Source of the DNA: an uncultured Elusimicrobia bacterium
GTDB lineage: Bacteria; Elusimicrobiota; Elusimicrobia; UBA1565; UBA9628
Direction of reading: 5' to 3'
Assembly: GCA_964510095.1 (NCBI GenBank)
Contig: CAZEAE010000002.1
Span: forward strand, 22,639-86,638
DNA: 64,000 nt
The notes under the pieces are model-generated. The model was not told the origin of the DNA, did not search any database, and saw only the letters and a program-made list of their open reading frames with translations. Shown here piece by piece: positions 5,757 through 51,208 of the stretch. The translations under genes were made by a program, and so were the position numbers. Every line of letters begins with the position of its first letter. Positions within the stretch are counted from its first letter, which is position 1.

Positions 5757-6254
5757 TCAATAAACCGAGTCCCATTCCCGGCGGATGAGCGAGAATTCCA
5801 CGCGGCGGTTCTTCTCACGACCCTCCTCGGTATCGTTGGAAGCCACCGGTTGCGAAGCGCCGTAGCCCTTGAAGCGGATCGAGGGCGGCGGGACGCCTTT
5901 CTTGACCAGGTAGCCCTTGACGGCCTTGGCGCGGCGCTCCGAGAGCTGCTGGTTGTAATCCGCTCCGCCTTCGCTCGAGGTGTGGGCCGTGATGCGGATC
6001 TTCAGGCTCTGGTGGCTCAGCAGGAACTCGGCGATGAGGTCGAGCGCCGGATAGCCGTCGGCGCGCAGCTGGGCGGAGTCGAAGTCGAAGCCGATCTTGG
6101 GCAGCTGGCCCGTATCGATGCGTTTCTGGATGGCGGAGAGCTCCACGCTGGCGCGGATCTCCTTGTGCCGGGCCGCCGCGGCGCCTGGCGCGTCGTCTTG
6201 GGCCGCTAGCGAAGCGGCCAAGAGCATGCAAACGATCGACAATCCTTTCCTCAT
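5757..6254 (-). CDS. OmpA-family protein (signal peptide + OmpA-like peptidoglycan-binding domain)
   Basis: N-terminal signal peptide. C-terminal OmpA_C-like motifs (TSSEGGADYNQQLSERRAKAV...RRVEF). Confidence 0.8.
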   Translation of the reverse strand: MRKGLSIVCMLLAASLAAQDDAPGAAAARHKEIRASVELSAIQKRIDTGQLPKIGFDFDSAQLRADGYPALDLIAEFLLSHQSLKIRITAHTSSEGGADYNQQLSERRAKAVKGYLVKKGVPPPSIRFKGYGASQPVASNDTEEGREKNRRVEFSLIRREWDSVY

Positions 6255-6260
6255 AAGTGT

Positions 6261-8039: not shown

Positions 8040-9163
8040 TGTCCGGCGTTATAGACCTCGAAGAAGGCCTTGCGCCGCTCCGCGAAGTTCCCTTCCGCCA
8101 GAGCGGTGCGCATGATGGCCATGATCTCGTCCATGAAGTGCAGGTTGTGGTAGGAAAGCAGCTGGTATATGACGAGCTCGCGCGCCCGGTACAGATGGCT
8201 CAGGTAGGCGCGGGTGTAGCGCTTGCAGACGAAGCAGGCGCAGTCGGCGTCGAGCGGCTCGAACTTGCGGCGCTGAGGGGCGTTCTGGATGTTGAATTTG
8301 CCGCGCCGGGTCATGATCTGCCCGTTGCGCGCGACCCGGGTAGGCCAGACGCAGTCCATCATGTCGACGCCGAGGCTCACGGCCTGCCAGACATCGTCGG
8401 GCGTGCCGACGCCCATGAGGTAGCGGGGTTTATCGGCCGGCATGTGCGAGATCGCCCCGTCCAAGGTGGACCAGGTGAGGTCCTTGGGCTCGCCGATGGA
8501 GAACCCGCCGATGGAGACGCCGTCCCAGGGGACTTTTTCCTGGAGATGCTCGACGGCGCGCTTGCGGAGGTCGGGGAAGAAGCCGCCCTGGAGGATGGGG
8601 AAGAAGAGCGGCTTGTGCCCGGCGTCCTTGGCGCGGTTCAAGGCGGTGACGGAGCGGTCGGTCCAGGTCATGGTGCGGTTCAAGGCCTGCTCGGCCTGGG
8701 CTTCGGTGGAGGGGTAAGGGGGGCATTCGTCGAGAGTGGTCCAGCAGTCGCTGCCGAGGTCGGATTGGATCTCGATGACCTTCTCGGCGGTGAGGCGGTG
8801 CTCGCTGCCGTCGATGTGGGAGCGGAAGGTGACGCCTTCATCGTCGACTTTCCGGAGGTCGGACATGCTCAGCACCTGAAAGCCGCCGGAGTCGGTCAGG
8901 ATCATGCCCTTGTAGTCCATGAACTTATGGAGGCCGCCGGCGGCCTTGATGAGGTCGGTGCCGGGGCGGAGGTACAGGTGATAGGAGTTGGAGAGGATGG
9001 CCTTGGTGCCGAGGCGTTCCAAGTCCTCTTGAGAGATGGCTTTGACCGAGGCTTGGGTGGCCACGGGCATGAAGACGGGGGTCTCGACGTCGCCGTGGCC
9101 GGTGGAAAGGACGCCGCTGCGGGCTTTGCCGTCTTTGTCTTTGGCCAGTACCTTGAAGCTCAT
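8036..9163 (-). CDS. tgt: Queuine tRNA-ribosyltransferase (tRNA-guanine transglycosylase)
   Basis: 375 aa. Conserved Tgt motifs (LTDSGGFQV, zinc site CxCxxC...H: CACFVCKRYTRAYLSHL). Confidence 0.95.
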   Translation of the reverse strand: MSFKVLAKDKDGKARSGVLSTGHGDVETPVFMPVATQASVKAISQEDLERLGTKAILSNSYHLYLRPGTDLIKAAGGLHKFMDYKGMILTDSGGFQVLSMSDLRKVDDEGVTFRSHIDGSEHRLTAEKVIEIQSDLGSDCWTTLDECPPYPSTEAQAEQALNRTMTWTDRSVTALNRAKDAGHKPLFFPILQGGFFPDLRKRAVEHLQEKVPWDGVSIGGFSIGEPKDLTWSTLDGAISHMPADKPRYLMGVGTPDDVWQAVSLGVDMMDCVWPTRVARNGQIMTRRGKFNIQNAPQRRKFEPLDADCACFVCKRYTRAYLSHLYRARELVIYQLLSYHNLHFMDEIMAIMRTALAEGNFAERRKAFFEVYNAGQ

Positions 9164-37806: not shown

Positions 37807-39132
37807 ATGGAACCCTATCTCGGTCATCGCAAAGCTTTGGAGCGCCGCCTGCCCGACGGGCTGATCCTCCTTTCCGGCGGCACCATGCTCACGCGCAATC
37901 ATGACGTCGATTTCGTGTTCCGGCAGAAATCCCACTTCCTCTATCTGACCGGCGTCGAGGAGCCCGGCTGCCATCTTCTGATCGACCCCAAACGGCGCCG
38001 ACACACCCTCTTCATCCCTCGGATCGACAATCACCACCGGGTCTGGCTGGGCCATGTGCCGGGGCCGCAGGAGGCGCGGCGGCTCTTCGGCATCGACCGG
38101 GTGGCCTACACCGACGAGCTCCCGGCCGCTCTGCGCCGGGCAAAAGCCGGCTATCGCAAGACCTACCTCGATGCCATCTCGGCTTCCCGCCACAAGCAGG
38201 CCCTGCGCGGCGTCGCCGCGGCGCCGGCCCTGCTCGAGGACGCGCTCCAGGAACTGCGCGCCTGCAAGACGCCGGGCGAGCTTGCGCTGCTGAAGCAGTC
38301 CAACGCCGTCAGCGGCCAGGCGCACCGCGAGGTGATGCGCTCGGTGCGTCCCGGCCAATATGAATTCGAGGCGCAGGCCGTCTTCGAGGCGGCATGCCTG
38401 CGGCGCGGCTTTCGGCACTTGGGCTATCCCTCGATCGTCGCAACGGGCACCAACGGCGCCGTCCTGCACTACCACCGCAACGCCGCCAAGATCAAGGACG
38501 GCGACCTCCTCCTCATCGACGCCGGCGCCGAGCTCAAAGGCTATACCGCCGACATCACTCGCACCTTCCCGGCCAACGGGCGCTTCACCCGGCGCCAGCG
38601 CGACATCTACTCCATCGTGCTCGCCGCCCAGAAATCCTGTATCGCCCGCTCGCGCCCGGGGATCGTCTCGGCCGACCTCCATCTGCACTCGATGACGGTC
38701 ATCGCCGAGGGGCTTAAGGACCTCGGCATCCTTCGCGGCGACACCGCCGGGCTCGTCGAGGGGGGCGCGGTCCGGTTGTTCTACCCTCATGGGTTGACCC
38801 ACATGCTCGGCTTGGACGTCCATGACGTCACGGGGGGGCGCAAGCGGCGCATGCCCAACCCCACGAAGGTCCCGGTGCGCTTCGTCGCGCGCCTGGAGCC
38901 GGGGTTCGTCATCACCATGGAGCCGGGGATCTATTTCATCGGGGCCCTGCTTCAAGACCCCGCGCTCCGGCGCAAGCACCGCGCCTCGGTCGACTTCGCC
39001 AAGGCCGACGGCTTCCTTGATTTCGGAGGCGTGCGCATCGAAGACGATATCGTGATCCGTCCCGGCGCGCCCCTGAACCTGACGGATGTCCCCAAGGAGA
39101 TCGCGGATGTGGAAGAAGCCTGCCGCCGCTAG
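37807..39132 (+). CDS. pepP: Xaa-Pro aminopeptidase (M24B)
   Basis: 441 aa. N-terminal creatinase-like domain. M24 metal-ligand motifs (HYHRNAAKIKDGDLLLIDAGAELKGYTADITRTFP, ...HGLTHMLGLDVHD..., EPGIY). Confidence 0.9.
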   Translation: MEPYLGHRKALERRLPDGLILLSGGTMLTRNHDVDFVFRQKSHFLYLTGVEEPGCHLLIDPKRRRHTLFIPRIDNHHRVWLGHVPGPQEARRLFGIDRVAYTDELPAALRRAKAGYRKTYLDAISASRHKQALRGVAAAPALLEDALQELRACKTPGELALLKQSNAVSGQAHREVMRSVRPGQYEFEAQAVFEAACLRRGFRHLGYPSIVATGTNGAVLHYHRNAAKIKDGDLLLIDAGAELKGYTADITRTFPANGRFTRRQRDIYSIVLAAQKSCIARSRPGIVSADLHLHSMTVIAEGLKDLGILRGDTAGLVEGGAVRLFYPHGLTHMLGLDVHDVTGGRKRRMPNPTKVPVRFVARLEPGFVITMEPGIYFIGALLQDPALRRKHRASVDFAKADGFLDFGGVRIEDDIVIRPGAPLNLTDVPKEIADVEEACRR

Positions 39133-40207
39133 CCTCCTAGCCCTCGGCTTGGCCGCTTCCGCCGCGGCTCAGGACGTCGGCATGAAGGTCGGCTTCTCCG
39201 CCCGCCCGCTCGGAGGGATGTCGTTCTGGGTCGCTACGCGCGCCGCTTCCGTGATCTTCGAGACCGGGGAAAGCGACGCGGTGTCCCAGCCTTGGGACAG
39301 CGTCCTCATACAAGGAGAAAGCCCCGATCAGGGGGTCGACTTCGAATTCTCGCGCCGGCTGGCCTCGGGCGCCTGGGGCGCCTGGACGCCTGCCCAGATC
39401 ACGCGCCGTACGGCGGACGGACGGTTTTGGGCCCGCGCCCGGCTTGCGAAGGCCTCGCCGGGCAGCCTCCGCCTTCGCGGGCTCGACGCAGGCGTGCAAT
39501 CCGGCCATTGGCTCGAGATATACACGGTGGAGGCCTTCGATTCGGGAGCCGTCACCCAGGAGGCGCCAGGGCCGGCGCCTGCCGAGCCGCCTTCCGCCCC
39601 GCCCGCGCCGCGTCCGTTGGTGCATGGACGGCAGGAATGGGCCGCCCGGGAGCCCAAGGAGCCTTATACCCCTCACGCACCCGACCGGCTGACGCTGCAC
39701 CATACGGCCGGAAGGCAGACGGCCTCCCTCCAAGCTTCTCTCGATGAGGTCCGATTCATCCAGGATTTCCACCAGAACGGGCGGGGCTGGAGCGACATCG
39801 GCTACCACTTTTTGGTCGACCCCGCGGGCAACATATTCACGGGCCGCCCCGAGACGGTCCAGGGCGCCCACGTCAAGGAGAGCAACAAGGGCAACCTCGG
39901 CATCTCCCTGCTCGGCAATCACCATCCGCCCAAGGATCATCCCGTCACGCCCGCCGCGCTCGACGCCGTCACGGCGCTAGGGCGATTCCTCATCGGCGCG
40001 TACCTCATCCCCGCCGGAACCCTGCGCGGCCATCGCGATTTCAACTCCGGGACGGAATGCCCGGGGGACCTAGCCTACATGCGCTTGGGGGAGCTTCGCG
40101 GCCGCTTATCGCAGACGGGGGCCAAGCTCTCGGCGCCGCGCAAGCGCTTCCACGTCCCGTCTTGGGCGTCGAGCGCGCTGGATTGGGACGCGGGGCTCAG
40201 GCCCTGA
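39107..40207 (+). CDS. N-acetylmuramoyl-L-alanine amidase (Amidase_2/PGRP domain) with signal peptide
   Basis: Signal peptide MWKKPAAASLLALGLAASAAAQ. Amidase_2 zinc-site context (LTLHHTAG..., GWSDIGYHFLVD, GHRDF...TECPG). Confidence 0.85.
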   Translation: MWKKPAAASLLALGLAASAAAQDVGMKVGFSARPLGGMSFWVATRAASVIFETGESDAVSQPWDSVLIQGESPDQGVDFEFSRRLASGAWGAWTPAQITRRTADGRFWARARLAKASPGSLRLRGLDAGVQSGHWLEIYTVEAFDSGAVTQEAPGPAPAEPPSAPPAPRPLVHGRQEWAAREPKEPYTPHAPDRLTLHHTAGRQTASLQASLDEVRFIQDFHQNGRGWSDIGYHFLVDPAGNIFTGRPETVQGAHVKESNKGNLGISLLGNHHPPKDHPVTPAALDAVTALGRFLIGAYLIPAGTLRGHRDFNSGTECPGDLAYMRLGELRGRLSQTGAKLSAPRKRFHVPSWASSALDWDAGLRP

Positions 40208-40988
40208 AACCGGAGGCCGCGGCCCAGAGGATGGCGCCGCCGGCCAGCAGCCGATAGACCACGTAGGGGCGCAGGCTGAGGCTCCCCAGATTCGCAAGGA
40301 AGAACCGCACCGCCGCAAACCCCATGACCGCGGAGACGGCGATGCCCCAAAGGAAGGGGCCCGACGCGTCGCCGATCTGCAAATGGCGGAGCTTGAGCAG
40401 GCAGGCCCCCGCCGTGATCGGCGTCGATAGGAGGAATGAATAGCGCGCGGCCTCGGCCCGCGATAAGCCAAGCGCCAGGCCCGCGGTCAGGGTCACGCCG
40501 GAGCGCGATACCCCGGGGCAGATCGACAAGGCCTGCGCCAACCCGATGCCGACGGCGCCCGAGAGCCCTAATTGATCGAGAGCGCGCTTCTTGGTCCCCC
40601 AGCGGTCGGCCAGTTCCATGAGGACGGCGAAACCCATCAAGGCTGTGGCGATGCGCCAAGGCTGGCGGAAAGCATGCTCCGCCTGATCCTCCAGGATCAA
40701 GCCCGCGGCGACGGCGGGCAAGGTGGCGAGCACGAGAAGCCCCAAGAACCGCGCTTGGGCTCCGCGACGGTCGCGCGCCGCCCCGCGGAGGATGTCCAGC
40801 CAGTCGCGCCAAAAACAGCTCACCACGGCGGCCAGCGTGCCGATATGCAGGGCCACATCGAAGGTGAGCCCAGGGTCCTCCCAGCCAAGGACCCAAGGCA
40901 GCAGCGTCAGATGGGCCGAGCTGGATACGGGCAAGAACTCGGTCAAGCCTTGGACGGCGCCGAAGACCGTGGCCTGGCCGTAGGTCAA
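40197..40988 (-). CDS. uppP: Undecaprenyl-diphosphatase
   Basis: 263 aa. N-terminal motif VFGAVQGLTEFLPVSSSAHL and about 8 TM helices. TTG start. Confidence 0.9.
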   Translation of the reverse strand: MTYGQATVFGAVQGLTEFLPVSSSAHLTLLPWVLGWEDPGLTFDVALHIGTLAAVVSCFWRDWLDILRGAARDRRGAQARFLGLLVLATLPAVAAGLILEDQAEHAFRQPWRIATALMGFAVLMELADRWGTKKRALDQLGLSGAVGIGLAQALSICPGVSRSGVTLTAGLALGLSRAEAARYSFLLSTPITAGACLLKLRHLQIGDASGPFLWGIAVSAVMGFAAVRFFLANLGSLSLRPYVVYRLLAGGAILWAAASGFRA

Positions 40989-42634
40989 GGCTTTTCCGGC
41001 AGGACCTTGGGGATCATCACGAAGTCACGCTTCGAGGCCGAGCCCCGCGCGCCGACCCACGGCCGGTTGCGCGCGGCCGCATCCGCCAAGGCGTGGCGCT
41101 CCGCGGCCTCGACCTCCCGGAACGGGGGAGAGATCTCGTCGATGTACTTCGGCTGGTAGTCGGGGTGGCTGACTTCCAGCGTATAGCCCTTTCCGCCGGC
41201 GAGGGCTTCCACCGACACCTTGAAGCGGCCGGCGTCTCCGGTCGTCGCCTCCCCGCGCTGATTGCCGGAAGGATCCTTGAACGCGAGCTTGGCCGCATAG
41301 ACTGATTCCAGACTGATGAGATCGTAGACCGAGCCTTCGAAGACCCACATCGCCGCCGGAGCGGCTTTCGCGGCTTTGGGAGCTTCGGCCGGGCTGGGCT
41401 TGGACGGCGCCGTCGCTTGGCTGGCGGCCGGCTTGGCAAGCTCCGGCGGCTTCGGCGGATCCATGGGGTTGGGCCTATCCATCGGCTTCGGCGATTCGGT
41501 GGCGACGGTGGTGCGGGTCAGCGTAGGGGCGGCCGCGGGCGCAGGTACGGGCGCGGCTACGGGCGCGGGCTTAGGCACGACCACCGGACTGAGCACGGGA
41601 GCAGGGGCGGGCGCGGGAGGCTTCACGACGGGCGCCGTTACAGCCGTCAACGGCGCGACCGGCTCTGGCACCACGGCGATGGGTGGAGCTGGGGGAGGCG
41701 CGACGGCCTGCGGGGGCTTTTCGCCTGGCGGCGGGATGCGCACCGTATCCGAACCCTTCGGGAAAGGCGAGCGCACCGGCCCCTGGCGTCCTTCCGGCGC
41801 GACGGGGCGCATGACCAGCGCCATCGCGACGAGGAAGCCGATGCCGACGACGACCGCGCCGCCGATGAGCCAATGGTTCATCGTCACGCGCGGGCGCGGC
41901 AAGGAGGTATTGGTCGTCGGGGCCGTTTTGGGCGCGGCGGGTTTAGCCTTGGGCGTCGGCACGGGCGGCGGCGAGATGGGTTTAGCTCGGTCAGGGCGGC
42001 GCGCCGGAACCGGAGGAGGCGTGGGGGTCCGCGGCGCAACGGGCGTCGGAGTAGGCGTAGGTGGAGGGGGAGGGGTCCGCGGCGCGGGAGCCGGAGGTGG
42101 AGCGGCGGGCTTAGGCGGCTCCTTCGCCGGGACCTTCGTCTTCTCCGGCGGTTTCGCTGGAGGCTTCGCGCTTCCGGGTATAGAAGGAAGCTCATCGGCA
42201 TGCAAGCCGATCTCGGGCGGCGGCCCCGTCACCTTACCCAAGGTGGGGATGGAGAACCCGGGGATGCTGTCGTTAGGCTGCACCTTCATCGGCGCGCGCG
42301 GGACGGCCCTGACCGGTTTTTCCGCGGGGGCGACCTCGGGTTGAGCCTCAAGGTCTTCTGGCGGCTCCGGCTCCTTTGGCTTGGGGGCCTCGGGAGGTTT
42401 GGGGGGCGCTTTGACGGGCTTAGCCGCCGGCAATTGAGGGGTGGCGGCCTTTTTTTCCACCGACGGCGGAGCCTCGACTTTCACGGCCGGAGGCAGCTGC
42501 GGGGTCTCTACTTTGACCGGCTCCGGCGGGTCGTCGGTGATGCGTTTAAAGGCGATGAAATCCCAATGACAAGAAGCGCACCTGGTGGCTTCGTCGTCGA
42601 CTTGGGCACCACAACTTGGACAGCGGGAGATCAT
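40985..42634 (-). CDS. Zinc-ribbon / proline-rich bitopic membrane protein with C-terminal carboxypeptidase-regulatory-like beta domain
   Basis: N-terminal CPSCG...CASCH zinc ribbon. About 230-aa Pro/Ala/Lys-rich repeats (PPKPPEAPKPKEPEPP...). One TM helix (LIGGAVVVGIGFLVAMALV). C-terminal segment GRFKVSVEALAGGKGYTLEVSHPDYQPKYIDEI. Confidence 0.6.
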   Translation of the reverse strand: MISRCPSCGAQVDDEATRCASCHWDFIAFKRITDDPPEPVKVETPQLPPAVKVEAPPSVEKKAATPQLPAAKPVKAPPKPPEAPKPKEPEPPEDLEAQPEVAPAEKPVRAVPRAPMKVQPNDSIPGFSIPTLGKVTGPPPEIGLHADELPSIPGSAKPPAKPPEKTKVPAKEPPKPAAPPPAPAPRTPPPPPTPTPTPVAPRTPTPPPVPARRPDRAKPISPPPVPTPKAKPAAPKTAPTTNTSLPRPRVTMNHWLIGGAVVVGIGFLVAMALVMRPVAPEGRQGPVRSPFPKGSDTVRIPPPGEKPPQAVAPPPAPPIAVVPEPVAPLTAVTAPVVKPPAPAPAPVLSPVVVPKPAPVAAPVPAPAAAPTLTRTTVATESPKPMDRPNPMDPPKPPELAKPAASQATAPSKPSPAEAPKAAKAAPAAMWVFEGSVYDLISLESVYAAKLAFKDPSGNQRGEATTGDAGRFKVSVEALAGGKGYTLEVSHPDYQPKYIDEISPPFREVEAAERHALADAAARNRPWVGARGSASKRDFVMIPKVLPEKP

Positions 42635-42668
42635 CTTCGGGCGGGAGGCCCGACCTCATTCTAGCTTT

Positions 42669-45600
42669 TTATTCCCGCTTCTTGCGAGTCAACCCGAGGA
42701 TGTAGGGCAGGTTCGAGTGCATGGCCAAGAAGCCGATGGACAATGCGGCCGCCGCTTGCAGGCCGAGCCTCAGCAAGTAGCGCGACATGGGGTCGTCCTT
42801 GGACTTGTTGTCGGCATCGAGTTCGTAGCGGTGCTGAGCCGGGGGCAGGTAGGTGTAGCCGTAGTCCTCGCCCTCCGGGCGGGGGGCGGCCGCGGGCTGG
42901 GAGGCCGTCGCAGGAGCGGAGGTCGAGCCGGCGTCGCGGCTGCGCTCCGCTATCGGAGCTTCCTCGGCGTTCGACTTGAAGACCGGGGCCTTGGGATTGA
43001 AAGTGGGCATGCCGGCGGAGCCGCCGGCCGGACCGCCGGTGGGGCCTTGCCCGTTGCGGACCTCAAGAGGCGACTTGCGTTCTTTCGAGCCATCGAAACG
43101 CGAGGCTAGAGAAGGCGTAGGCTCATGACCGCCGGCCAGGGCGCCCTCATTGGGGGTCATCAAAGATTTGGGGCGAGGCGCCGCCAGGTCCGGCGCGCTA
43201 GCCGCGGCGATCGAGCGCGGCGCCGCAGGGCTGATGTCGGCTGGAGCCGGAGTTCCGTTCATGGCCATCTGATTCGAGGGTGCAGGGTCCTGAGAGGCTC
43301 CGCCGCCGCCACCACCGCCTCCACCGCCACCGCCGCCTCCACCACCGCCACCGCCTCCACCACCGCCCCCACCGCCGCCTCCAGCACCGCCCCCACCGCC
43401 GCCGCCCGAAGTGTCGCCGGATTTGTTCCCGCCGCCCTTATCTCCGCCGGCAGGGGCGGCACCGCCGCGCGATGCGGTCGTATCCCTATTGTCAGCCGCG
43501 GGGCGAGTCGTCTCGGGGGCTTTCTGCTGGACCTGCTGCGGAGGCTCAGGGCGCCGCTCTGGCTCGACTTCGGGCTCCGGCTTTTCCGGCAGGTCCGGAG
43601 GCTGCGGGGGTTCGTTATGGATCACGCGGGGAACTTCTTCCTCCAACTTGCGAGGCTCCTCTTTGGGGGCTTCCTTGGGGATATGGGTTTCTTCAGGGGG
43701 CTTCACGAAGACGGAGGCGTAAGGCAACACCACGGTGCTGCCGGTCAACGGCTTCTTGACCACATCCTTGACCTTCTCCCAGACGGACTTGGGCTTGATG
43801 GGCTCTTCGCCCTTGAGTTTGGGGGTCTCCTTGACCGCCGGCGTATCCTTGGCCACCGGTTTTTCCTTGGCCGCGGCTTCATCCATGAATGATCGGCGAG
43901 GGATCTTGACGCGTGGCTTCCCATCGGGACCAAATTCTCCCTCGACGATCTTGGGCGCCTCCGACTTGATGCGCGGCTTGCCGTCAGGGCCGAACTCGCC
44001 TTCGACGATCTTGGGGCTTTCCGCCTTGACCCGCGGCTTGCCGTTGGGGCCGAATTCTCCCTCGACGATCTTGGGAGCCTCCGATTTGACGCGCGGCTTG
44101 CCGTTGGGGCCGAATTCGCCTTCGACGATGAGCTTGGGAGTCGCTTCCAGCGGGCGCTCGAGGACGGCCTTGGGTTCGATGATCTCGCCGGCGGCTTTTT
44201 TGACGCGCGGCCGGCCATTGGGGCCGAACTCTCCTTCCACGATCTTGGGGGCTTCGTTCTTGACGCGGGGCTGGCCGTTGGGACCGACCTCGCCCTGCAC
44301 TATTTTGGGCGCTTCGCTCTTGACGCGCGGCTTGCCGTCGGGGCCGAACTGGCCTTCGACGATCTTGGGGGCGGCCTTCGAGAAGGGCTTGCCGTCGGGG
44401 CCCAGCAGCGCCGGGGCTTCGCCGGAGAGCGGCCGGCCGTCAGGCCCCAAAAGTCGGGGCTTCGCCGCCCCCGCCGTTTCGGCCGTCACCTCGATGATGC
44501 CGCCTTTTTTGGGCGCCTGGACCTCGAGGACCGGAGCCGCCTCCTTGACTATCTTGGCCGACGGCGGCAAGGACCCCTCCGCGACCGCGACCGCGGCGGC
44601 GGGCCCGCCCGTCCCGGCGGCGCCGCCCTTTTCTCCCGCCGTCATCTTGAAATTGGCCTTCCCCTCGCCTACGCCCTCGATCGCCCCGGCCTGCACCTTG
44701 GCCGCGCCTTCCGCGTTGATCTTGGCGGCCTCGACCGTGGCCGTCTGCAGCGCCTTGTCGGCCTTTTTGGATTCGAATACGCTCATGAAGCCTTCTTTGA
44801 AGGTGGTCAGCAGGCTCTTGGCCGCGGGAGCCGCCGCCGGCCCGCCCGTCGCTGTCGCGTCGGGCACGCCGCCTTGAGCGGCCGGCTGCGCTTGCGCGCT
44901 GGCGGATTCCGCGGCGGCCTTGGCCTGAGCCTCGGCCGCCTTTCCGGCCTGAGCGGTATCCTTCAGCCCCTTCTCAAGCTCCAGCAGCTTGGCCTTCTCG
45001 ATGCCCAGGGCCTTGGCTTCGGCGGCCGCGGCCCGCTTATCGCGCATGCCTTTGGCCATGACCGCCAGGAAGGCCAGGTCCGACAGGTTGTGCGACACCT
45101 GCATCGTGGCTTTGTCGTCCCAGGCCTTGTCCCCCGTCACGGCGTCGGCGACGTTCATCGTCGTGCGCCCCAGGCCGTCCGCCGCGCTGGCGACGAAAGG
45201 CACGACCATCAGCAGGGTGACCGTCGTGTCCAGGGCCTGCAGGCCCTTCACGCCCCAAACCGCCGCCTTGGCGCCGTTGGCGAAGGCCGCCGTGGCTTTG
45301 ATGGCGACGATCGCCTCGCCTAAGCCGAACGTCGCCAGCACCAAGGGATTGAGCAGGCTCTCCGCCACGTTCTCCACCGCGCCTACGACCACTCCGGCCG
45401 TGGTATAGCCGTTCTCGATGAGCCGCTTGCCGTAGGTGCTGGCGCCGTACTCGTTGCGGACCGTCTGCGCCGCCTCTTTGGCGGTGATCGGAGCGTTGAC
45501 GGACTGCTCGATGACGTCGGGAGACATCGGGAAGGGCTGGTCCTCCAGATTCTTGCGCCGGAGCTCGCGGACCTTGTCGTAAAGCCTCCGCCGGGCTCCC

Positions 45601-48149
45601 GGAGTCAAGCGGTCGATATGCCCTTGGTCGTCGACCAGCAGGTTGGCCAGAGGGTTCTTCGACATGCTGCCGACCATCTCCAGACTGGCGGTGTCGTTGC
45701 CGAAAGCGGCGACGGTCATCTGGGGGATGGCCACGAGGCTCGTGTAGGCCGTCTTGCCCACGTTGCCGCAGAAACCGAGGACATCACTGAGGATGGGGAC
45801 CTTCATGATCCCCGAACCGACCCCGCCCAGCCAGGATTCGCCCTCCTTCACCGTCACGTCCTTGATGAAGTCCTTCTTCGTTTGGTTCCAGCCGCCCTGC
45901 GCCGCCGAGCCCTTCCAGGCCGACTCCTTCAGCCAGATCTTCTTGATGTCGTTGGTATAAGCCCAAGGGCCCCAGCCGTGGTCCTCGGTGTCGTCGGAGG
46001 CGGCCCATTCGCGCCGCGTGCCCCACGGCGTGTACTCCCGCCAGGCGCCGGGGTGCTCCTGGGAGGGCGTGCCATCCGAGCCCAGCGTGATGGCGCCCAT
46101 CAGCGTGAAGCTGGTCTTTCCGGGCTGTTTGTAGGTCTCCAAGAACTGTCCGGCGATGATCTTCTTCTGGCCGTTGCTGCGCTCGAAGATCAGCTTGTAG
46201 TTGCCCTTCTCGTCGACGCAGAAGCGGATCGCCGCCGGACCGTCGGCCAGGTCCGTCGGCTTGTATTCGTCCGCGTCGAATAGGAAGTTGCCCAGCGCGA
46301 CCTTGCGGGTGCCGTCCTGATCGGCGACCCCCAGGATCTTGAGGAGCTCCTCGGCCAGCGCCCTGCTGGCCTTGGCGCGCTCCTCTCCGCGCGCGATCTT
46401 GAGCAGGCCGGCCAGCGAGACGTCATAGGTCAGGAATTTCCCTTTAGGGTCGATGATCTTGTTGACGTGGGACGAGAGGATCAGGATGCTGTTGTCGTTG
46501 CCCAGCACGATCCGGTTGATCGTGATCGAGCCGTCATCGTTGAGCGTGCCGTACTGGAACTTATATAGCGGCGCGTCGGTCTTGCCTAGGTTGAGGTTGG
46601 TGATCTTGGTCGAGCGATCCTCGGAGGTGGCGATCTCCGTGCCGCGGCTGAAGTCCGTCATCGTCCGGACCCCGCCGTTGTCCTCGACCTTGGTCTCCAC
46701 CGAGCCGTCGGGATTGAAGACCTTGATCCGGGTCACCTTCTTGGCGATGTCGGCGAATTCCTCCCGCAGGACCCGGCCCGTCTTCTCGTCGATGATCCGC
46801 GTCTGGGCGAGCCGGAGCTGCCTCTCCGCGTCGAAGAACGCCCGGGTGCGGACCTCTTTTCCGGTGACGGGGGACCGGGCCACGCTGAGCGCGGAGTCGT
46901 CGTCGCGGCCCTGCCCCTGGAATCTGGAAGTGCCGTCCTTGTAGTGGTATTGGAAGCCGAGGAAGACCGTCCCGCTCTCCTGCTGAGCCGAGAAGACGAT
47001 CTTGGTGACGGGGGGCTCGGCGGGAGCCCCGACCTCCCAGGCCTCGAAAACGGTCCCCACCGGGATCGCTTGCGAGAGGAAGGCTTGCTGGAGGAAGACC
47101 TTGTACATGGCCATGTCGACCATATAGAGGGCCAGCGGCATGTTGGTCTCGGCGATGACCTTCATGCGGCGCTGCTCTTCGGCGGCGTCCTTGGCCGGGC
47201 CCTTGATGCCGTTCGTCTCCAGGAGGAACCTGCGGGTCTGCTCCAGATGGGCGATGAGGCTCGGCAGGCCGACGAACGCGTCGGGGTCGCCATGGGAAGC
47301 CAGGATCGCCTCACGGGCGCCGCGCAGCAGGGACCTCCGTTTGTCCAAGCGGTCCGCGGTGAAGAGGCGCTCCTTGGCGTCGGGGAGGAGGTTGAGGAAG
47401 GGGGAGGCGGCGTCCTCGGCGGCATCCGACAATCCGGGCCCCTTGACGTTCTTCACCGCGCCCTGGACGCCGGGCGCCGGAGGGCTGAGGTCCAGATCCT
47501 TGGGCTTGCCGCTCTGAGCGTTGGGGTTGCGGGGATCGGCGAATTCGATGGGGCTCTCGGCAAGCCCCTTCTGGACTTTGGCGAGCCGGGCCTGCGCGTC
47601 GGGGAGGCCGCCGAGGCGCTGCTGCAGGTTCTCGAAGATGCGCGCGGCTTGGCTCGGGTCGGCTGCGGCATCGCGCAAGCCGCCGACCAGGGCCGCCACG
47701 GTGGCTCCATCGCCTTGCTTCGGCCCGGCGCTGACGGCCTCGACGAGCGCCGTGACCTGAGGGTTGGGCTGGCCGCTGCCCCCGAGCGTCAAGCTCTTGG
47801 TGCTCTCGAGCAGGGCTGAGACCTTCTTCACGTCATCGCGGACTTTCGCCTGCTCGGAGGCCAGCATCGAGCCTTCGGCGAGCATGGCCTCGACGCGCTT
47901 GAGGCGCTTCTCCAGGTCCGCGACCGAGGCTTTCTTCTTGCCGCGCAGATGCGCCAAGAGGTCTTCATTGAGGCTCTGCAGCTCGCCGCGCGCCTGCATC
48001 ACCGTGCCGGAGTTCAACGTGATCGTGGGCGCGCCGGCCATGGCCAGCTGCTGGTCGGAGGCGAGGGAGGGGCCGGCGCCGAAGGCCAGGACGGCCGCCA
48101 ACGACAGCGCCGATAGGGGTCTGGGTCTTTCGGTCCCGGCCATGCCCAC
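42669..48149 (-). CDS. Giant (1826 aa) signal-peptide-bearing, C-terminally TM-anchored protein of unknown function with poly-Gly tract and tandem 20-aa repeats
   Basis: N-terminal signal peptide. Coiled-coil and unknown globular regions. 8-9 tandem repeats SEAPKIVEGEFGPNGKPRVK. Lys/Pro/Glu-rich linker. 35-residue Gly homopolymer. C-terminal TM helix LLRLGLQAAAALSIGFLAMHSNLPYILGL followed by TRKKRE. Confidence 0.75.
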   Translation of the reverse strand: MGMAGTERPRPLSALSLAAVLAFGAGPSLASDQQLAMAGAPTITLNSGTVMQARGELQSLNEDLLAHLRGKKKASVADLEKRLKRVEAMLAEGSMLASEQAKVRDDVKKVSALLESTKSLTLGGSGQPNPQVTALVEAVSAGPKQGDGATVAALVGGLRDAAADPSQAARIFENLQQRLGGLPDAQARLAKVQKGLAESPIEFADPRNPNAQSGKPKDLDLSPPAPGVQGAVKNVKGPGLSDAAEDAASPFLNLLPDAKERLFTADRLDKRRSLLRGAREAILASHGDPDAFVGLPSLIAHLEQTRRFLLETNGIKGPAKDAAEEQRRMKVIAETNMPLALYMVDMAMYKVFLQQAFLSQAIPVGTVFEAWEVGAPAEPPVTKIVFSAQQESGTVFLGFQYHYKDGTSRFQGQGRDDDSALSVARSPVTGKEVRTRAFFDAERQLRLAQTRIIDEKTGRVLREEFADIAKKVTRIKVFNPDGSVETKVEDNGGVRTMTDFSRGTEIATSEDRSTKITNLNLGKTDAPLYKFQYGTLNDDGSITINRIVLGNDNSILILSSHVNKIIDPKGKFLTYDVSLAGLLKIARGEERAKASRALAEELLKILGVADQDGTRKVALGNFLFDADEYKPTDLADGPAAIRFCVDEKGNYKLIFERSNGQKKIIAGQFLETYKQPGKTSFTLMGAITLGSDGTPSQEHPGAWREYTPWGTRREWAASDDTEDHGWGPWAYTNDIKKIWLKESAWKGSAAQGGWNQTKKDFIKDVTVKEGESWLGGVGSGIMKVPILSDVLGFCGNVGKTAYTSLVAIPQMTVAAFGNDTASLEMVGSMSKNPLANLLVDDQGHIDRLTPGARRRLYDKVRELRRKNLEDQPFPMSPDVIEQSVNAPITAKEAAQTVRNEYGASTYGKRLIENGYTTAGVVVGAVENVAESLLNPLVLATFGLGEAIVAIKATAAFANGAKAAVWGVKGLQALDTTVTLLMVVPFVASAADGLGRTTMNVADAVTGDKAWDDKATMQVSHNLSDLAFLAVMAKGMRDKRAAAAEAKALGIEKAKLLELEKGLKDTAQAGKAAEAQAKAAAESASAQAQPAAQGGVPDATATGGPAAAPAAKSLLTTFKEGFMSVFESKKADKALQTATVEAAKINAEGAAKVQAGAIEGVGEGKANFKMTAGEKGGAAGTGGPAAAVAVAEGSLPPSAKIVKEAAPVLEVQAPKKGGIIEVTAETAGAAKPRLLGPDGRPLSGEAPALLGPDGKPFSKAAPKIVEGQFGPDGKPRVKSEAPKIVQGEVGPNGQPRVKNEAPKIVEGEFGPNGRPRVKKAAGEIIEPKAVLERPLEATPKLIVEGEFGPNGKPRVKSEAPKIVEGEFGPNGKPRVKAESPKIVEGEFGPDGKPRIKSEAPKIVEGEFGPDGKPRVKIPRRSFMDEAAAKEKPVAKDTPAVKETPKLKGEEPIKPKSVWEKVKDVVKKPLTGSTVVLPYASVFVKPPEETHIPKEAPKEEPRKLEEEVPRVIHNEPPQPPDLPEKPEPEVEPERRPEPPQQVQQKAPETTRPAADNRDTTASRGGAAPAGGDKGGGNKSGDTSGGGGGGGAGGGGGGGGGGGGGGGGGGGGGGGGGGGGASQDPAPSNQMAMNGTPAPADISPAAPRSIAAASAPDLAAPRPKSLMTPNEGALAGGHEPTPSLASRFDGSKERKSPLEVRNGQGPTGGPAGGSAGMPTFNPKAPVFKSNAEEAPIAERSRDAGSTSAPATASQPAAAPRPEGEDYGYTYLPPAQHRYELDADNKSKDDPMSRYLLRLGLQAAAALSIGFLAMHSNLPYILGLTRKKRE
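43300..43406 (-). repeat. In-frame (GCC/ACC/TCC)n microsatellite encoding a 35-residue polyglycine tract (one Ala) in the giant protein
   Basis: Plus strand reads ccgccgccgccaccaccgcctccaccgccaccgcc... for about 105 nt. Minus-strand codons GGC/GGT/GGA. Confidence 0.8.
43903..44420 (-). repeat. Tandem 60-bp coding repeats (about 8 copies, degenerate at the 3' end) encoding the 20-aa unit SEAPKIVEGEFGPNGKPRVK
   Basis: Repeating plus-strand unit cgcggcttgccgttggggccgaattc[gt]cc[ct]tcgacgatcttggg[ag]gc[ct]tccga[ct]ttgac, near-identical in the first four copies. Confidence 0.8.
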
Positions 48150-48282
48150 AGTGTAGTCCTTAAGGTCCTAGAGCGTCAGTGTCCTAAGGCCCAGAGGACC
48201 ATAGGTCCAAGGGCCTAGGAGGCAGGATTAGTATAACCGGAAAGGCGGGAAATGCAAGCGGGCCGGCGGCGCGAGCGAGAAG

Positions 48283-49182
48283 CTAGCCCTGGGTCGTCAA
48301 GGAGGCGAGCCGTTCCTCGAATCTGACCCGGGGGACGGCGCCTTCTTCCTTTAAGAGGAAATACTTGCTGGCCTTTTGGGACAGGATCGTGAGGAACTTG
48401 GCGGGCACGCCGGCGCGCCGATAGGCCGCCAGCTTGTGATGACCGTCGAGGACGAAGCCGGCGAAGAAGGAGTGCAGGTTCTTGTTCTGCCCTTTCTTGA
48501 CGGCTTCCGGGATGCCGCGCTGATACATGCCCAGCATCAGGATGCGCGGACGGTCGCCGTTGGTGATCATCGATTGATAGAGCTTGATGTATTCCTCTTT
48601 CAGCGCGGCGCGCGGCACCAGAGGGATGACGAAATCGAACTGCTTTTCCATGACGCCGGTGTCGGCGTTGCGGAAGATCCGGGGCCGCTGGCTCTCGTAG
48701 TGCTCCCAGCCGGACAGAAGGCCTTCTTCCTTCGGGTCCGAGATGTCCCAGAGCTCCATGAACTCGCTGTTGAAGAAATAAGAGCCTTCGTCCTCGCTGT
48801 CATAAGGTCCGCCCAGGTTGATGGAGGTCTCGAAGACCTCGTACTCGCCCTTCTCCATGAGGTCGAGCATCGGGGAGAGTTCCTGGACCATCGATTCGTC
48901 GATGGGACGGGGGAGCTGGATGGTCTTGGGGAGGTTGGCGATCTTCTTCTGGCTGGAGAGCCGCGGCTCGTGCAGGCACTTGAACCAGAAATGGCAGGTA
49001 TCGCAGTCGTTGCCGATCTCGAACTTGCGGGAGCCATTGATCTCAAGGAAGATGGAATTGGCTTCGCCGTGCTTCTTCTCCACGCCGATCTTGAAGAAAC
49101 CCTTGCCCTGGTTCAGCTTGACCTTCATCAGGCCGTCGGCCAACCGGGTGACCTCCAGCTTCGGAGCCGTTTCTGATTTCAT
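48283..49182 (-). CDS. Hypothetical protein (299 aa, no signal peptide, Cys cluster GNDCDTCHFWFKCLH), first gene of the giant-protein operon
   Basis: Clean ORF with slightly lower GC (about 60%) than its surroundings. No recognisable family. Confidence 0.55.
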   Translation of the reverse strand: MKSETAPKLEVTRLADGLMKVKLNQGKGFFKIGVEKKHGEANSIFLEINGSRKFEIGNDCDTCHFWFKCLHEPRLSSQKKIANLPKTIQLPRPIDESMVQELSPMLDLMEKGEYEVFETSINLGGPYDSEDEGSYFFNSEFMELWDISDPKEEGLLSGWEHYESQRPRIFRNADTGVMEKQFDFVIPLVPRAALKEEYIKLYQSMITNGDRPRILMLGMYQRGIPEAVKKGQNKNLHSFFAGFVLDGHHKLAAYRRAGVPAKFLTILSQKASKYFLLKEEGAVPRVRFEERLASLTTQG

Positions 49183-49248
49183 GAAAAGAGGATACCGCTA
49201 AAGCGTCCGGATGTCAAGCAACCGGAGGCGGCTGACATGCGCGACGCC

Positions 49249-49283: not shown

Positions 49284-50342
49284 ATGGCCGAGCGGACCTT
49301 CGAGGATGCCCTGCTCCGCGAGGCTTTCGCGCTCTCGGAAGAGCCTCTGGCGGCGCTCGACGCGGGACGCAAGATAAGGCTCTTCAGCCGCGGCGCGGCG
49401 CGCCTGCTGGGGCGCGACGCCTGCGGCCAGCCGGCTTCAAGCCTGTTCGCGGAACCTTCCGCCTGCGAGGACCTCCTGCTGCTGGCCGCCGAAAGCGGCT
49501 CGCTGTCTGGCTGCGAGGCTTGGCTCAAGCACAGCAACGGGGGGAGGCTTCGGCGCCGTGTCGGTGTCCGAACGCTCGAGGGAAAAGGGGCTCCCGCCGG
49601 CTGGCTATTGAGCTTCGAGGCCTCGGCGCCGCGGCAGGGAGCGGCGGCGAAAGGCGAAAAGACCGGCGCGCTCGTCCAGCTCGAGCGTTTTGCCGCGGTC
49701 GGCCGCATGGCCGCTTCCTTCGCCCATGACGTGCGCGGGCCGCTCCATGTGATAGCTTCCGCCTCCGAATCGGCGCTTTCCGGCATGCCTGAGGCCCACC
49801 CCCTGCGCCCCGCGCTCGACATGATCGGCCGCAATGCCGTTCATGCGGCGCTCTCGGCGCAGTCTCTGCTCGATTTCGCCAAGACCGGCAGCGCCCAGCT
49901 GAAGACCGAACCGCTGGATCCGGTCGTCTCCGCCGCGCTGAACCTGGCGGAGAAGGACTGCCTCGACGCCGGCATCAAGGTCCAGCGCGCCTTGGGGGAC
50001 CCGCCGGCGCTGCCCTTGGACGCCCGCCTCCTGCAGGGGGTGTTCTATAACCTGATCACCAACGCCCGGCAAGCGATGGCCCGCGGAGGGACCTTGACGG
50101 TCAGCACCGGCCGCGACCGCCGCGGCACCTTCGCCGTCGTGGCGGACACGGGAGCGGGGATGTCGGCCGAGACCCTGGGCCGAGCTTCGAAGGCATTTTT
50201 CACGACCAAAAGCTCCGGCACGGGCCTGGGTCTCTACGCTTGCCGCCTCATCCTGGCCGAGCATCAGGCCGAGCTCATCCTGGAGTCGGCCAAAGGACGC
50301 GGCACCTCGGCGCGCATCCGTTTCCAAGACTCGACTCAATAA
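49284..50342 (+). CDS. Cytoplasmic PAS-domain sensor histidine kinase
   Basis: No TM. N-terminal PAS-like region. H-box FAHDVRGPL. HATPase_c N/G boxes (YNLITNARQAM, DTGAGM, GTGLGLYACR). Confidence 0.85.
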   Translation: MAERTFEDALLREAFALSEEPLAALDAGRKIRLFSRGAARLLGRDACGQPASSLFAEPSACEDLLLLAAESGSLSGCEAWLKHSNGGRLRRRVGVRTLEGKGAPAGWLLSFEASAPRQGAAAKGEKTGALVQLERFAAVGRMAASFAHDVRGPLHVIASASESALSGMPEAHPLRPALDMIGRNAVHAALSAQSLLDFAKTGSAQLKTEPLDPVVSAALNLAEKDCLDAGIKVQRALGDPPALPLDARLLQGVFYNLITNARQAMARGGTLTVSTGRDRRGTFAVVADTGAGMSAETLGRASKAFFTTKSSGTGLGLYACRLILAEHQAELILESAKGRGTSARIRFQDSTQ

Positions 50343-50410
50343 ATCCGCAATACCGTTCTCCTATATTTAGAACGCTCACGGTTCAACAATCTAAAGGAAC
50401 GGAGAAATCG

Positions 50411-51208
50411 ATGCCTGAAGAGTCCCTCTGGCTGCGGCCCAGAGCCGCGGCGGCCCTCTCGCTGCTCCTGGTATTGAAGGCCCTGCCGGCTGCGGCCGCT
50501 CCGGCCGCCCAAGCCGTGCTCCGGCTGGACGGACGGCTGACGGACGCCTCTCAGGCTCCGCTGGCCGGCAACTATCTGCTGCGGTTCGGGATCTGGGACG
50601 CGCCTCGGGACGGCAGTGAGGTCTGGAGCGAGTCGCTCTACGTCAGCGCCAAGGACGGCTTCTATACGGCGCTTCTCGGGCGGCTCAAGCCTCTGCCCAC
50701 TACGGTGATGGATTCGGCCTACCGCCTAGAGGTCTCGGCTCCGCCCGGGACCGGCTGGCTGTCCCAGTCCTTGAAGGCGCCGACCCTGAGCCGGGGCGCC
50801 CCGGCGGAGCCGCAGTTCACTCCCGATCCCGGTCTGCGGGTCGAATCCGACCCGATCCAAGCCTCCGCGCCGGCGCCGGCATCGGAGCCGGTGAGGACCC
50901 CTCGGCCCGCGCCCACGGCGCCCCCGGCATCGTCCTCGGTCGTCGTGCTGCCCGACGCGGCGGCCTTGGCCAAGGAATTGGCCGCGGTCAAGGAAGAGCT
51001 GGACCGGCGCAAAACGGCGGGTTTCGAGACCAGGATCTACCAGGTCCTGGCCGGCGACACCCTGCGCAGCGTCGCCGTCAAGCTCTATGGCGACGCCGAG
51101 CGCTGGATAGACCTCTATCAAGCCAACGACGACCGGATATCGCGCGGCGGCGAGCTGATCGCAGGCCAGCGCCTGCTGGTCCCGCGCGAGGGCGCGATCA
51201 AGAGATAA
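50411..51208 (+). CDS. Secreted LysM-domain protein
   Basis: Signal peptide. Ala/Pro-rich linker. C-terminal LysM YQVLAGDTLRSVAVKLYGDAERWIDLYQANDDRI...GQRLLVP. GGAG SD. Confidence 0.75.
   Translation: MPEESLWLRPRAAAALSLLLVLKALPAAAAPAAQAVLRLDGRLTDASQAPLAGNYLLRFGIWDAPRDGSEVWSESLYVSAKDGFYTALLGRLKPLPTTVMDSAYRLEVSAPPGTGWLSQSLKAPTLSRGAPAEPQFTPDPGLRVESDPIQASAPAPASEPVRTPRPAPTAPPASSSVVVLPDAAALAKELAAVKEELDRRKTAGFETRIYQVLAGDTLRSVAVKLYGDAERWIDLYQANDDRISRGGELIAGQRLLVPREGAIKR

Follow-up and report, generated by a model that had tools for sequence, protein, structure and literature searches.

What is the nature of a protein of 1826 amino acids (aa) that combines a large N-terminal module with several hundred residues of low-complexity sequence, in a bacterium that is known from its DNA? 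Elusimicrobia are almost wholly uncultured, and their envelope biology is mostly derived from genome inference. The gene in question lies in a stretch of 64,000 nucleotides (nt) from an uncultured Elusimicrobia bacterium (contig CAZEAE010000002.1, positions 22,639 to 86,638), which is referred to as the window. On its minus strand, four genes follow each other in the order u299, giant, ZnR, and uppP, which stand for a 299-aa protein, the 1826-aa protein, a putative zinc-ribbon/Pro-rich membrane protein, and undecaprenyl-diphosphate phosphatase, respectively. An earlier note on this DNA described an operon built around the giant protein, likened the protein to an envelope-spanning tether, and recognised no family for giant, u299, or ZnR. 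In this study, the giant protein is found to be a member of an uncharacterised family of putative cell-envelope proteins, seen so far only in Elusimicrobia. Judging from its sequence, it is tentatively regarded as a membrane-anchored scaffold or tether of the envelope.

Membership and distribution of the family

An exhaustive HMMER search with aa 1-1060 of giant against 1.84 billion representatives yielded 60 relatives with E<1e-3, including 37 with E<1e-30, at 24-44% identity. Many of the 60 relatives are 1535-2177 aa long. Those with a source name or an organism record are all from Elusimicrobia or Elusimicrobiota, and all are annotated as hypothetical. A pattern scan that covered one genome per species detected 20 loci, and all 20 are in metagenome-assembled genomes (MAGs) of Elusimicrobia. 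A word-indexed search with the N-terminal module (N-module) gave only a strain fragment of 97% identity, as if giant were an orphan; this view was rejected on the basis of the 60 relatives from the exhaustive search. The family is defined here by an N-module of ~1040 aa (HMMER E<1e-30), a low-complexity spacer, and the motif HS[ND][LF]PY[IL][IL]G.[TS]RR, and the protein of the window has all three.

No Pfam or NCBIfam family was matched by the whole protein at E up to 1, and no Pfam model was matched by the N-module in 54 relatives. There was no match for giant in PHROGs or PADLOC and no relative on viral contigs, and no phage or defence link was found. A PDB sequence search with the whole protein retrieved only the Gly linkers of single-chain variable fragment (scFv) constructs, while a PDB search with the profile of the 54-sequence alignment retrieved nothing meaningful. 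In the literature on Elusimicrobia giant or tether proteins, no description of the family was found. Since it has no model in any library searched and carries only hypothetical annotations, the family is considered to be new, although membrane-anchored envelope proteins that carry low-complexity stalks are, as a kind, already familiar. The absence of a recognised family for the three proteins therefore holds for characterised families in Pfam, NCBIfam, PHROGs, PADLOC, PDB sequences, and fold searches, but giant does have its 60 relatives.

Conserved layout and variable sequence

The architecture that the earlier note had read from the sequence, i.e. a signal peptide, tandem repeats, a Lys/Pro/Glu-rich stalk, a Gly tract, and a hydrophobic C-terminal segment ending in a basic tail, was confirmed (Table 1). 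Eight full-length proteins, from the window and from the loci L008, L009, L011, L014, L015, L016, and L018, were compared. In all eight, an N-module of 1008-1089 aa is present together with a spacer of 600-751 aa rich in Ala, Gly, Pro, Lys, and Glu, and the N-termini of the orthologues are comparable to the signal-peptide-like start of giant. Identity to the window protein is 20-57% in the N-module, falls to 2-20% in aa 1201-1500, and rises to 38-77% in the last 26 residues, and the C-terminal end is the best-conserved part of the protein. The start of the spacer (aa 1040-1230) is 12-32% identical to orthologues; the tandem repeat region is not conserved (2-18%); and aa 1660-1790 near the C-terminus are 33-41% identical to the relatives P0142 and P0136.

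The array of tandem repeats in giant starts with two degenerate half-units, after which seven complete units of 20 aa form two blocks (aa 1258-1317 and 1336-1415). In relatives, the same slot is filled by unrelated repeats, such as 16-aa repeats of Glu, Arg, Lys, and Ala in L016, which look like single-alpha-helix sequence, 21-aa repeats in P0128, and others in P0131, P0134, and P0139. The Gly tract had been described as a homopolymer of 35 Gly close to the membrane anchor. There are indeed 35 Gly, encoded by a mixture of GGC, GGT, GGA, and GGG codons, but they are interrupted by one Ala and lie 174 residues from the C-terminal hydrophobic segment. A Gly-rich peak, with 17-34 Gly in windows of 40 aa, is found ~230-300 residues before the C-terminus in ten other full-length members examined. 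Overall, the order of the low-complexity elements recurs in the orthologues with unrelated sequences.

Short-form paralogues were also observed (L019, L024, and L025, about 6000-9100). They keep the first ~170-260 aa of the N-module and aa ~555-1040, and the first beta-meander is absent, the missing part being aa ~230-550. The copy in L025 adjoins u299 and keeps the C-terminal anchor motif.

Predicted structure of the N-module

Giant was modelled up to aa 1060 by AlphaFold2 (AF2) with the 54-sequence alignment, and the model has a mean predicted local distance difference test (pLDDT) score of 83, with 602 residues at 90 or above. It consists of helical and beta-sheet regions in alternation (Table 1), and aa 1040-1060 are helical. 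The best-conserved stretch of the N-module, aa 801-1000, is 42-57% identical to close orthologues and includes the Gly/Ala-rich hydrophobic helices. This conserved hydrophobic helical region (aa 916-1004) was not mentioned in the earlier note; its AF2 confidence is 41-83, and G919, E926, E930, N934, P935, G942, and G944 in it are nearly invariant.

A cluster of nine Trp in 80 residues is located around aa 700-770, on predicted beta-hairpins, and five of the nine are invariant among close relatives. According to the model, this Trp-rich hairpin region may be a glycan-binding or membrane-interface site.

A Foldseek comparison, which had been suggested as a check, showed no characterised fold homologue of the giant model in the PDB. 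OspA from Borrelia, the TCP domain of CPAP/SAS-4, and MORN repeats, which have single-layer beta-sheets, align with 135-180 of the 1060 residues at 8-12% identity, and they are analogues of a repetitive fold, not relatives. Furthermore, OspA has a lipobox, whereas giant is without one.

A possible envelope tether

According to the positive-inside rule, a protein with a signal peptide at its start and a hydrophobic segment plus polybasic tail at its end has type-I topology. The topology proposed in the earlier note agrees with the signal-peptide-like N-terminus, the C-terminal hydrophobic segment (aa 1791-1820), and the basic tail (TRKKRE), but it is complicated by the marginal hydrophobicity of that segment and by the conserved hydrophobic hairpin inside the N-module. 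On this basis, we infer the export and topology of giant, the location of its N-module, and its tethering function as follows. The protein would be exported by Sec via the N-terminal signal peptide, and the C-terminal hydrophobic segment would retain it in the cytoplasmic membrane with the polybasic tail in the cytoplasm. The spacer of ~600-750 residues would leave the membrane, its sequence being free to vary as long as the order of its elements is kept: outward from the membrane, these would be the conserved short motifs, the Gly tract, the Pro/Glu/Lys stretch, and tandem repeats or charged helices. The spacer would hold the rod-like N-module of ~1000 residues, composed of helical bundles and single-layer beta-sheets, away from the membrane, where the Trp-rich beta region and the Gly/Ala-rich hydrophobic hairpin could plausibly contact peptidoglycan, the outer membrane, or a partner protein. 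Taken as a whole, giant would then act as a flexible scaffold or tether of the envelope rather than as an enzyme. It is the most economical reading of the protein, and since the orthologues keep the order of the elements despite unrelated sequences, the idea of an envelope tether put forward earlier gains support, although export, topology, and function enter it as predictions.

A similar arrangement is found in TolA and TonB, which have one membrane anchor and keep a folded domain distant from the cytoplasmic membrane by a long low-complexity spacer (rich in Pro/Glu/Lys in TonB, helical and rich in Ala/Lys/Glu in TolA). However, the anchor of TolA/TonB is N-terminal, whereas that of giant is C-terminal and accompanied by a signal peptide, and the spacer of giant is 5-10 times longer. 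No TonB_C or TolA Pfam match was found in giant, no ExbBD or TolQR among the called neighbours, and no sequence or fold homology. ZnR, with its transmembrane (TM) helix, Pro-rich linker, and C-terminal folded domain, is closer still to the TolA/TonB layout.

Several observations weigh against a tether. By a crude Hessa-type sum of insertion energies, the C-terminal segment of giant is marginal (+3.5 kcal/mol), and the segments of several orthologues fail the threshold altogether; that of L011 is better than the window copy (+0.9), and those of P0128 and P0139 are clearly hydrophobic (Kyte-Doolittle (KD) hydropathy 1.98-2.33). A strictly conserved length of the spacer was considered and rejected, as the spacer of P0139 is ~1100 aa long and that of the short form L025 is much shorter; L025, at 1059 aa, also has no Gly tract. 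The route by which the N-module would reach or cross the outer membrane is not evident from the sequence. Moreover, the N-module is not tied to tethering, as two distant relatives have toxin-like or enzymatic domains in place of the spacer and anchor. Finally, the internal hydrophobic hairpin could change the topology if it formed two inner-membrane helices.

A more elaborate version of the tether, which is unlikely to hold in all its parts, would describe giant as a tether or ruler of the envelope of a previously unrecognised kind. Its C-terminal helix would sit in the cytoplasmic membrane, and the hairpin and Trp-rich region of the N-module would sit in the outer membrane or peptidoglycan. 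The polyGly tract, polyproline-type stretch, and repeats would form an entropic spring selected for its physical length rather than its sequence, and distant relatives would have taken over the N-module to carry toxin domains. By our own estimate with a standard polymer scaling law, a random coil of ~750 residues would measure roughly 25 nm, which is about the width of the periplasm.

Alternative interpretations

Giant might instead be a surface fibril or adhesin, an unlikely interpretation, in which the N-module is shown beyond the outer membrane or shed and attaches to particles or cells, while the spacer serves as its long, flexible stalk. Large bacterial surface proteins typically combine a signal peptide with tandem repeats and low-complexity stalks, as giant does; size, repeats, and stalks are shared with RTX/type I secretion system (T1SS) and Bap-like adhesins; surface or ligand-binding proteins often have OspA-like single-layer sheets and Trp-rich hairpins; and the middle region of giant diverges fast. 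However, no secretion partner, beta-barrel, secretion signal (T1SS, T5SS, or T9SS), S-layer homology (SLH) domain, or adhesin domain was recognised in giant or its neighbours, and homology to an adhesin or S-layer family, named in the earlier note as a finding that would refute its reading, was not found. RTX/T1SS adhesins have a C-terminal secretion signal without a signal peptide, whereas giant begins with a signal peptide and ends with a membrane segment, and its Gly tract is homopolymeric in contrast to the GGxGxD nonapeptide repeats of RTX proteins. No T1SS signal and no RTX, Ig-like, or cadherin-like repeats were found in giant, and no T1SS or transporter genes nearby. As for an SLH/OmpM-type anchor, there was no SLH or porin-like Pfam match, and the AF2 model has no barrel. 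The anchor of giant is at the inner-membrane end, with no evident route over the outer membrane, and exposed adhesin tips usually diversify, whereas the N-module is under purifying selection, with a ratio of non-synonymous to synonymous substitution rates (dN/dS) of 0.19.

It is also rather unlikely that giant is a polytopic inner-membrane protein. In such a protein, Sec would insert the helices at aa 931-957 and 969-995 as a TM hairpin, giving three spans and a periplasmic low-complexity loop of ~800 aa anchored at both ends, which would act as a brush or spacer and not as a tether between two membranes. The KD peaks of the helices (1.82 and 1.69) are above the usual threshold of 1.6, the loop between them (ANGAKAAVWGVKG) has two Lys as would fit a cytoplasmic loop, the hairpin falls in the best-conserved stretch of the N-module, and the AF2 confidence decreases there. 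Against this, both helices miss the threshold in the crude sum of insertion energies, at >4 kcal/mol each, they contain conserved Glu, Asn, and Pro, the region is below KD 1.5 in most orthologues, and AF2 packs the hairpin into the helical domain.

Conserved N-terminal carriers with variable C-termini are the hallmark of polymorphic toxins, and the family resembles both Sec-exported polymorphic toxins (MafB-like) and Rhs/teneurin proteins in having a conserved N-terminal carrier with differing C-terminal ends. Giant could accordingly be a vehicle of toxin delivery, where the N-module is a Sec-dependent carrier or translocator, the hairpin inserts into a target membrane, the C-terminus is a membrane-active cargo, and ZnR protects the producer. 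The relative P0149 (L012, 225-6529 with the next gene) shares aa 322-1056 of the N-module and continues with GGDEF, a Kdo/protein-kinase-like domain, and DUF6883, with a DUF4926 gene following it, and P0167 (L013) ends in a ParB-like nuclease domain. In a preprint (bioRxiv 10.64898/2026.08.28.747851), DUF6883 is described as a BECR-Tox3 RNase toxin and DUF4926 as the immunity partner of this toxin. Nevertheless, neither the window protein nor any syntenic orthologue has a toxin domain, and their C-terminus is conserved, not polymorphic. ZnR is large (343-549 aa), conserved, and also present without giant. Giant has no secretion system next to it, PADLOC and PHROGs gave no match, and no viral relative was found. 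The beta shells of Rhs/teneurin give weak Foldseek matches (probability 0.3-0.77, TM-score 0.05), and no RHS_repeat or YD Pfam match was found in 54 members. For giant itself, toxin delivery is considered improbable.

It is very improbable that the C-terminus is a sorting signal (LPXTG, PEP-CTERM, GlyGly-CTERM, or similar) that is cleaved by a sortase, exosortase, or rhombosortase, after which the mature protein would be attached elsewhere. The conserved motif, hydrophobic stretch, and basic cluster do resemble such signals. However, no NCBIfam CTERM model was matched at E up to 1, and conservation is seen within the hydrophobic stretch and beyond it, not ahead of it. Sorting signals are normally common to many different proteins of one genome. 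A strict-pattern scan with a degenerate DNA pattern for the C-terminal motif, on the other hand, gave five metagenome contigs, with all five matches at the C-terminus of a giant-family protein, and the matches in the examined loci are likewise all on the giant family. Because all matches fall on this family, the motif is probably a family-specific anchor and not a shared sorting signal.

Authenticity of the gene

An artefact, either a chimeric open reading frame (ORF) created when the repeats were misassembled or a long but spurious reading frame in GC-rich sequence, is next to impossible: two contigs (L002 and L017) do break at the Gly tract, but a second assembly spans the whole gene, the DNA of the repeat units has diverged by 25%, purifying selection is evident, 60 homologues share the layout from end to end, and the AF2 model is confident. 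The contigs L001 and L002 are independent assemblies of replicate samples from the same groundwater well (Hainich H51). L001 is identical across all 5481 nt except for one synonymous base in the Gly tract, and L002 is identical for 4786 nt up to its end inside this tract. Between the repeat units, DNA identity is 75%, and a comparison of their codons gives 125 synonymous and 98 non-synonymous differences; with such divergence, the units are old and can be resolved in assembly. The dN/dS of 0.19 was obtained with 791 codons of a strain variant (L034, well H52), and the GC content at third codon positions (GC3) is 0.91, like that of the neighbouring genes. The giant gene is real, native, and under purifying selection, and the assembly chimera feared in the earlier note was not found.

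The short-read contigs L002 (nt 15819) and L017 (nt 10164), which are from two different species, both end within the polyGly-coding tract of giant. Therefore, many copies in databases are likely to be truncated (several are annotated as 'partial'), and the family is probably under-counted.

Gene order and transcription in the window

The features of the window are listed in Table 1. The start codon of giant is GTG, with AAGGA 7 nt upstream; other gene callers give a protein of 1824 aa, which starts from an ATG two codons downstream of the GTG. Giant and ZnR are separated by 34 bp, and the start of uppP overlaps the stop of ZnR by 4 nt; with this gap and overlap, the sequence suggests that giant, ZnR, and uppP are plausibly co-transcribed in the window. 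Between u299 and giant, there are 133 bp with weak promoter-like hexamers, and co-transcription of u299 with giant is uncertain.

Table 1. Coordinates and basis of the features in the window (positions in nt; residues are those of giant unless a length is given).
Feature	Length or residues	Position	Strand	Basis or remark
u299	299 aa	48283-49182	minus	ORF list
giant gene	1826 aa	42669-48149	minus	ORF list
ZnR (zinc-ribbon/Pro-rich membrane protein)	549 aa	40985-42634	minus	ORF list
uppP (undecaprenyl-diphosphate phosphatase)	263 aa	40197-40988	minus	Pfam BacA and NCBIfam
sigma-70-like promoter match TTGACA-17-TATCCT		49189-49217	minus	upstream of u299; consensus match only
signal-peptide-like N-terminus	aa 1-31	48057-48149	minus	two Arg, hydrophobic 11-30 (KD 1.68), SLA|SD
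conserved N-module	aa 46-1040	45030-48014	minus	helical bundles, beta-meander, helices, Trp-rich beta region, helical domain
helical bundles	aa 48-360			AF2
17-strand antiparallel single-layer beta-meander	aa 381-577			AF2
helices	aa 580-629			AF2
second beta region, long hairpins, invariant W703, W715, W726, W729, W754	aa 640-768			AF2
Trp cluster	aa 700-770	45900-46050		predicted beta-hairpins
helical domain including Gly/Ala-rich hydrophobic helices	aa 773-1059			AF2, lower confidence
Gly/Ala-rich hydrophobic helices	aa 916-1004	45138-45404	minus	KD peaks 1.82 and 1.69
Ala/Lys/Glu/Gly-rich region, variable spacer start	aa 1040-1230	44460-45032	minus	sequence and composition
tandem repeat region, 20-aa consensus SEAPKIVEGEFGPNGKPRVK	aa 1232-1415	43905-44456	minus	TRF period 60, 7.9 copies
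Lys/Pro/Glu-rich stretch	aa 1416-1560	43470-43904	minus	orthologues have similar Pro-rich stretches
glycine tract G7-A-G28	aa 1582-1617	43299-43406	minus	35 Gly and one Ala
C-terminal linear motifs GGHxPTPSLAxRFDGS and E[DE][YF]xYTY[LM]xPAxH[KR]YEL	aa 1660-1790	42780-43172	minus	alignment
C-terminal hydrophobic segment and basic tail	aa 1791-1826	42672-42779	minus	KD 1.65; motif HS[ND][LF]PY[IL][IL]G[LM][TS]RR[RK]R
secreted Amidase_2 peptidoglycan amidase		39086-40207	plus	convergent with uppP
protein with LysM-like C-terminus		50240-51208	plus	E 0.007, under cutoff
coiled-coil protein with C-terminal HisKA and HATPase_c	2341 aa	51215-58240	plus	almost all coiled coil

UppP is a full-length member of UppP/BacA (PF02673; 246.7 bits against a cutoff of 33.4, E 4e-73), and the NCBIfam models of undecaprenyl-diphosphate phosphatase match it with E down to 4e-73, yet under their equivalog cutoffs. 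The ORF ends of uppP and the convergent amidase overlap by 11 nt, and the gene for the LysM-like protein is upstream of that for the coiled-coil kinase. Together, ZnR, uppP, the Amidase_2 amidase, and the LysM-like protein give the neighbourhood an envelope or cell-wall theme. Rfam and tRNA scans gave no match in the region.

Conservation of the gene order

A search for homologues with the same three-gene neighbourhood, as recommended in the earlier note, was successful: the order u299, giant, ZnR occurs in at least six other genomes. In the window, L008, L009, L014, L015, and L018, the three genes follow each other directly, while a 421-aa membrane protein is inserted between u299 and giant in L011. 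In the window and L008, uppP is 3' of ZnR. Elsewhere, u299 is followed by a short-form giant (L025) or by a giant with an adjacent locus tag (P0092/P0131). In L003 and L006, u299, a membrane protein, and ZnR are present and giant is absent; u299 is followed by a small ORF and uppP in L005, and it is directly beside an M24 peptidase in L007. A full-length giant occurs elsewhere in the genome, with neither u299 nor ZnR beside it, in L016, where it adjoins rimP-nusA, and in L017; L016 and L006 are from the same genome. Thus, an operon as described earlier is only partly backed by the recurrent order: u299 (L003, L005, L006, L007) and ZnR (L003, L006) also occur without giant, and giant occurs alone (L016, L017). 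The block is better described as a recurrent syntenic arrangement with optional members.

The slot after u299 is occupied by a multi-pass membrane protein of 395-421 aa with no Pfam match in three loci (L003 10887-12134, L006 10887-12074, and L011 6664-7929). It replaces giant in L003 and L006, precedes giant in L011, and is absent from the window.

u299 and ZnR

More than 120 homologues of u299 were found at 55-88% identity, and all source names are Elusimicrobia MAGs. From its sequence features, u299 is predicted to be a cytoplasmic protein. Its invariant residues include DGHHK and those of a nearly invariant CDTCHFWFKC stretch, and its AF2 model is confident (pLDDT 91.8, predicted TM-score (pTM) 0.91). 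No Pfam, NCBIfam, PADLOC, or PDB-sequence match was obtained, and the best Foldseek hit in the PDB has E 0.56; as modelled, u299 may represent a new fold or a new enzyme. A ParB/Srx-like C-terminal domain (motif FVLDGHHKLAAYRRAG) was considered for u299 and rejected, as there was no Pfam, PDB-sequence, or Foldseek PDB match. In eight of the examined relatives, u299 is divergent from a coiled-coil gene, which is its firmest link and more constant than giant.

The 2341-aa coiled-coil protein of the window is 49-59% identical in its first 400 aa to the 688-867-aa coiled-coil proteins that are divergent from u299 in relatives. It appears, by sequence, to be a greatly expanded version that has been fused to a histidine kinase. 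The coiled-coil protein of L011 is a very long version too.

ZnR had been described as a zinc-ribbon, Pro-rich membrane protein. Its layout consists of a putative N-terminal zinc ribbon (CxxC-x10-CxxC, with Cys 5, 8, 19, and 22), a Pro-rich linker, a strong and single TM helix at aa 256-274 (crude insertion energy -1.5), a second Pro-rich linker, and a beta-sandwich-like domain at aa 430-549. The CxxC pairs, TM helix, and Pro-rich linkers agree with that description, whereas both Pfam matches are weak and under cutoff: 20 bits against 25 for Zn_Ribbon_1 (PF13240; E 5.7e-4), and 19.8 bits against 32.3 for CarboxypepD_reg (PF13620; E 1e-3) at the C-terminus. In homologues, the first 32 aa are 45-69% identical and the C-terminal domain is 32-59% identical. 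These homologues are located 3' of giant in six loci (L008, L009, L011, L014, L015, and L018), whereas L003 and L006 have a ZnR homologue but no giant.

Significance for the Elusimicrobia envelope

The giant family represents a way to build a very large envelope protein that was missed by existing annotation. Its N-module of ~1000 residues is confidently modelled and has no family assignment, and its spacer of several hundred residues keeps a low-complexity character while the sequence turns over, with a long Gly-rich tract in most full-length members. If giant is indeed a tether, it would be a new way to join the layers of a two-membrane envelope or to set their distance, and it would lend itself to the study of disordered bacterial linkers that are selected for length. 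If it is a toxin carrier, the N-module would be a new Sec-dependent delivery domain. Either way, three hypothetical genes gain family boundaries, motifs, and synteny that can be used for database models.

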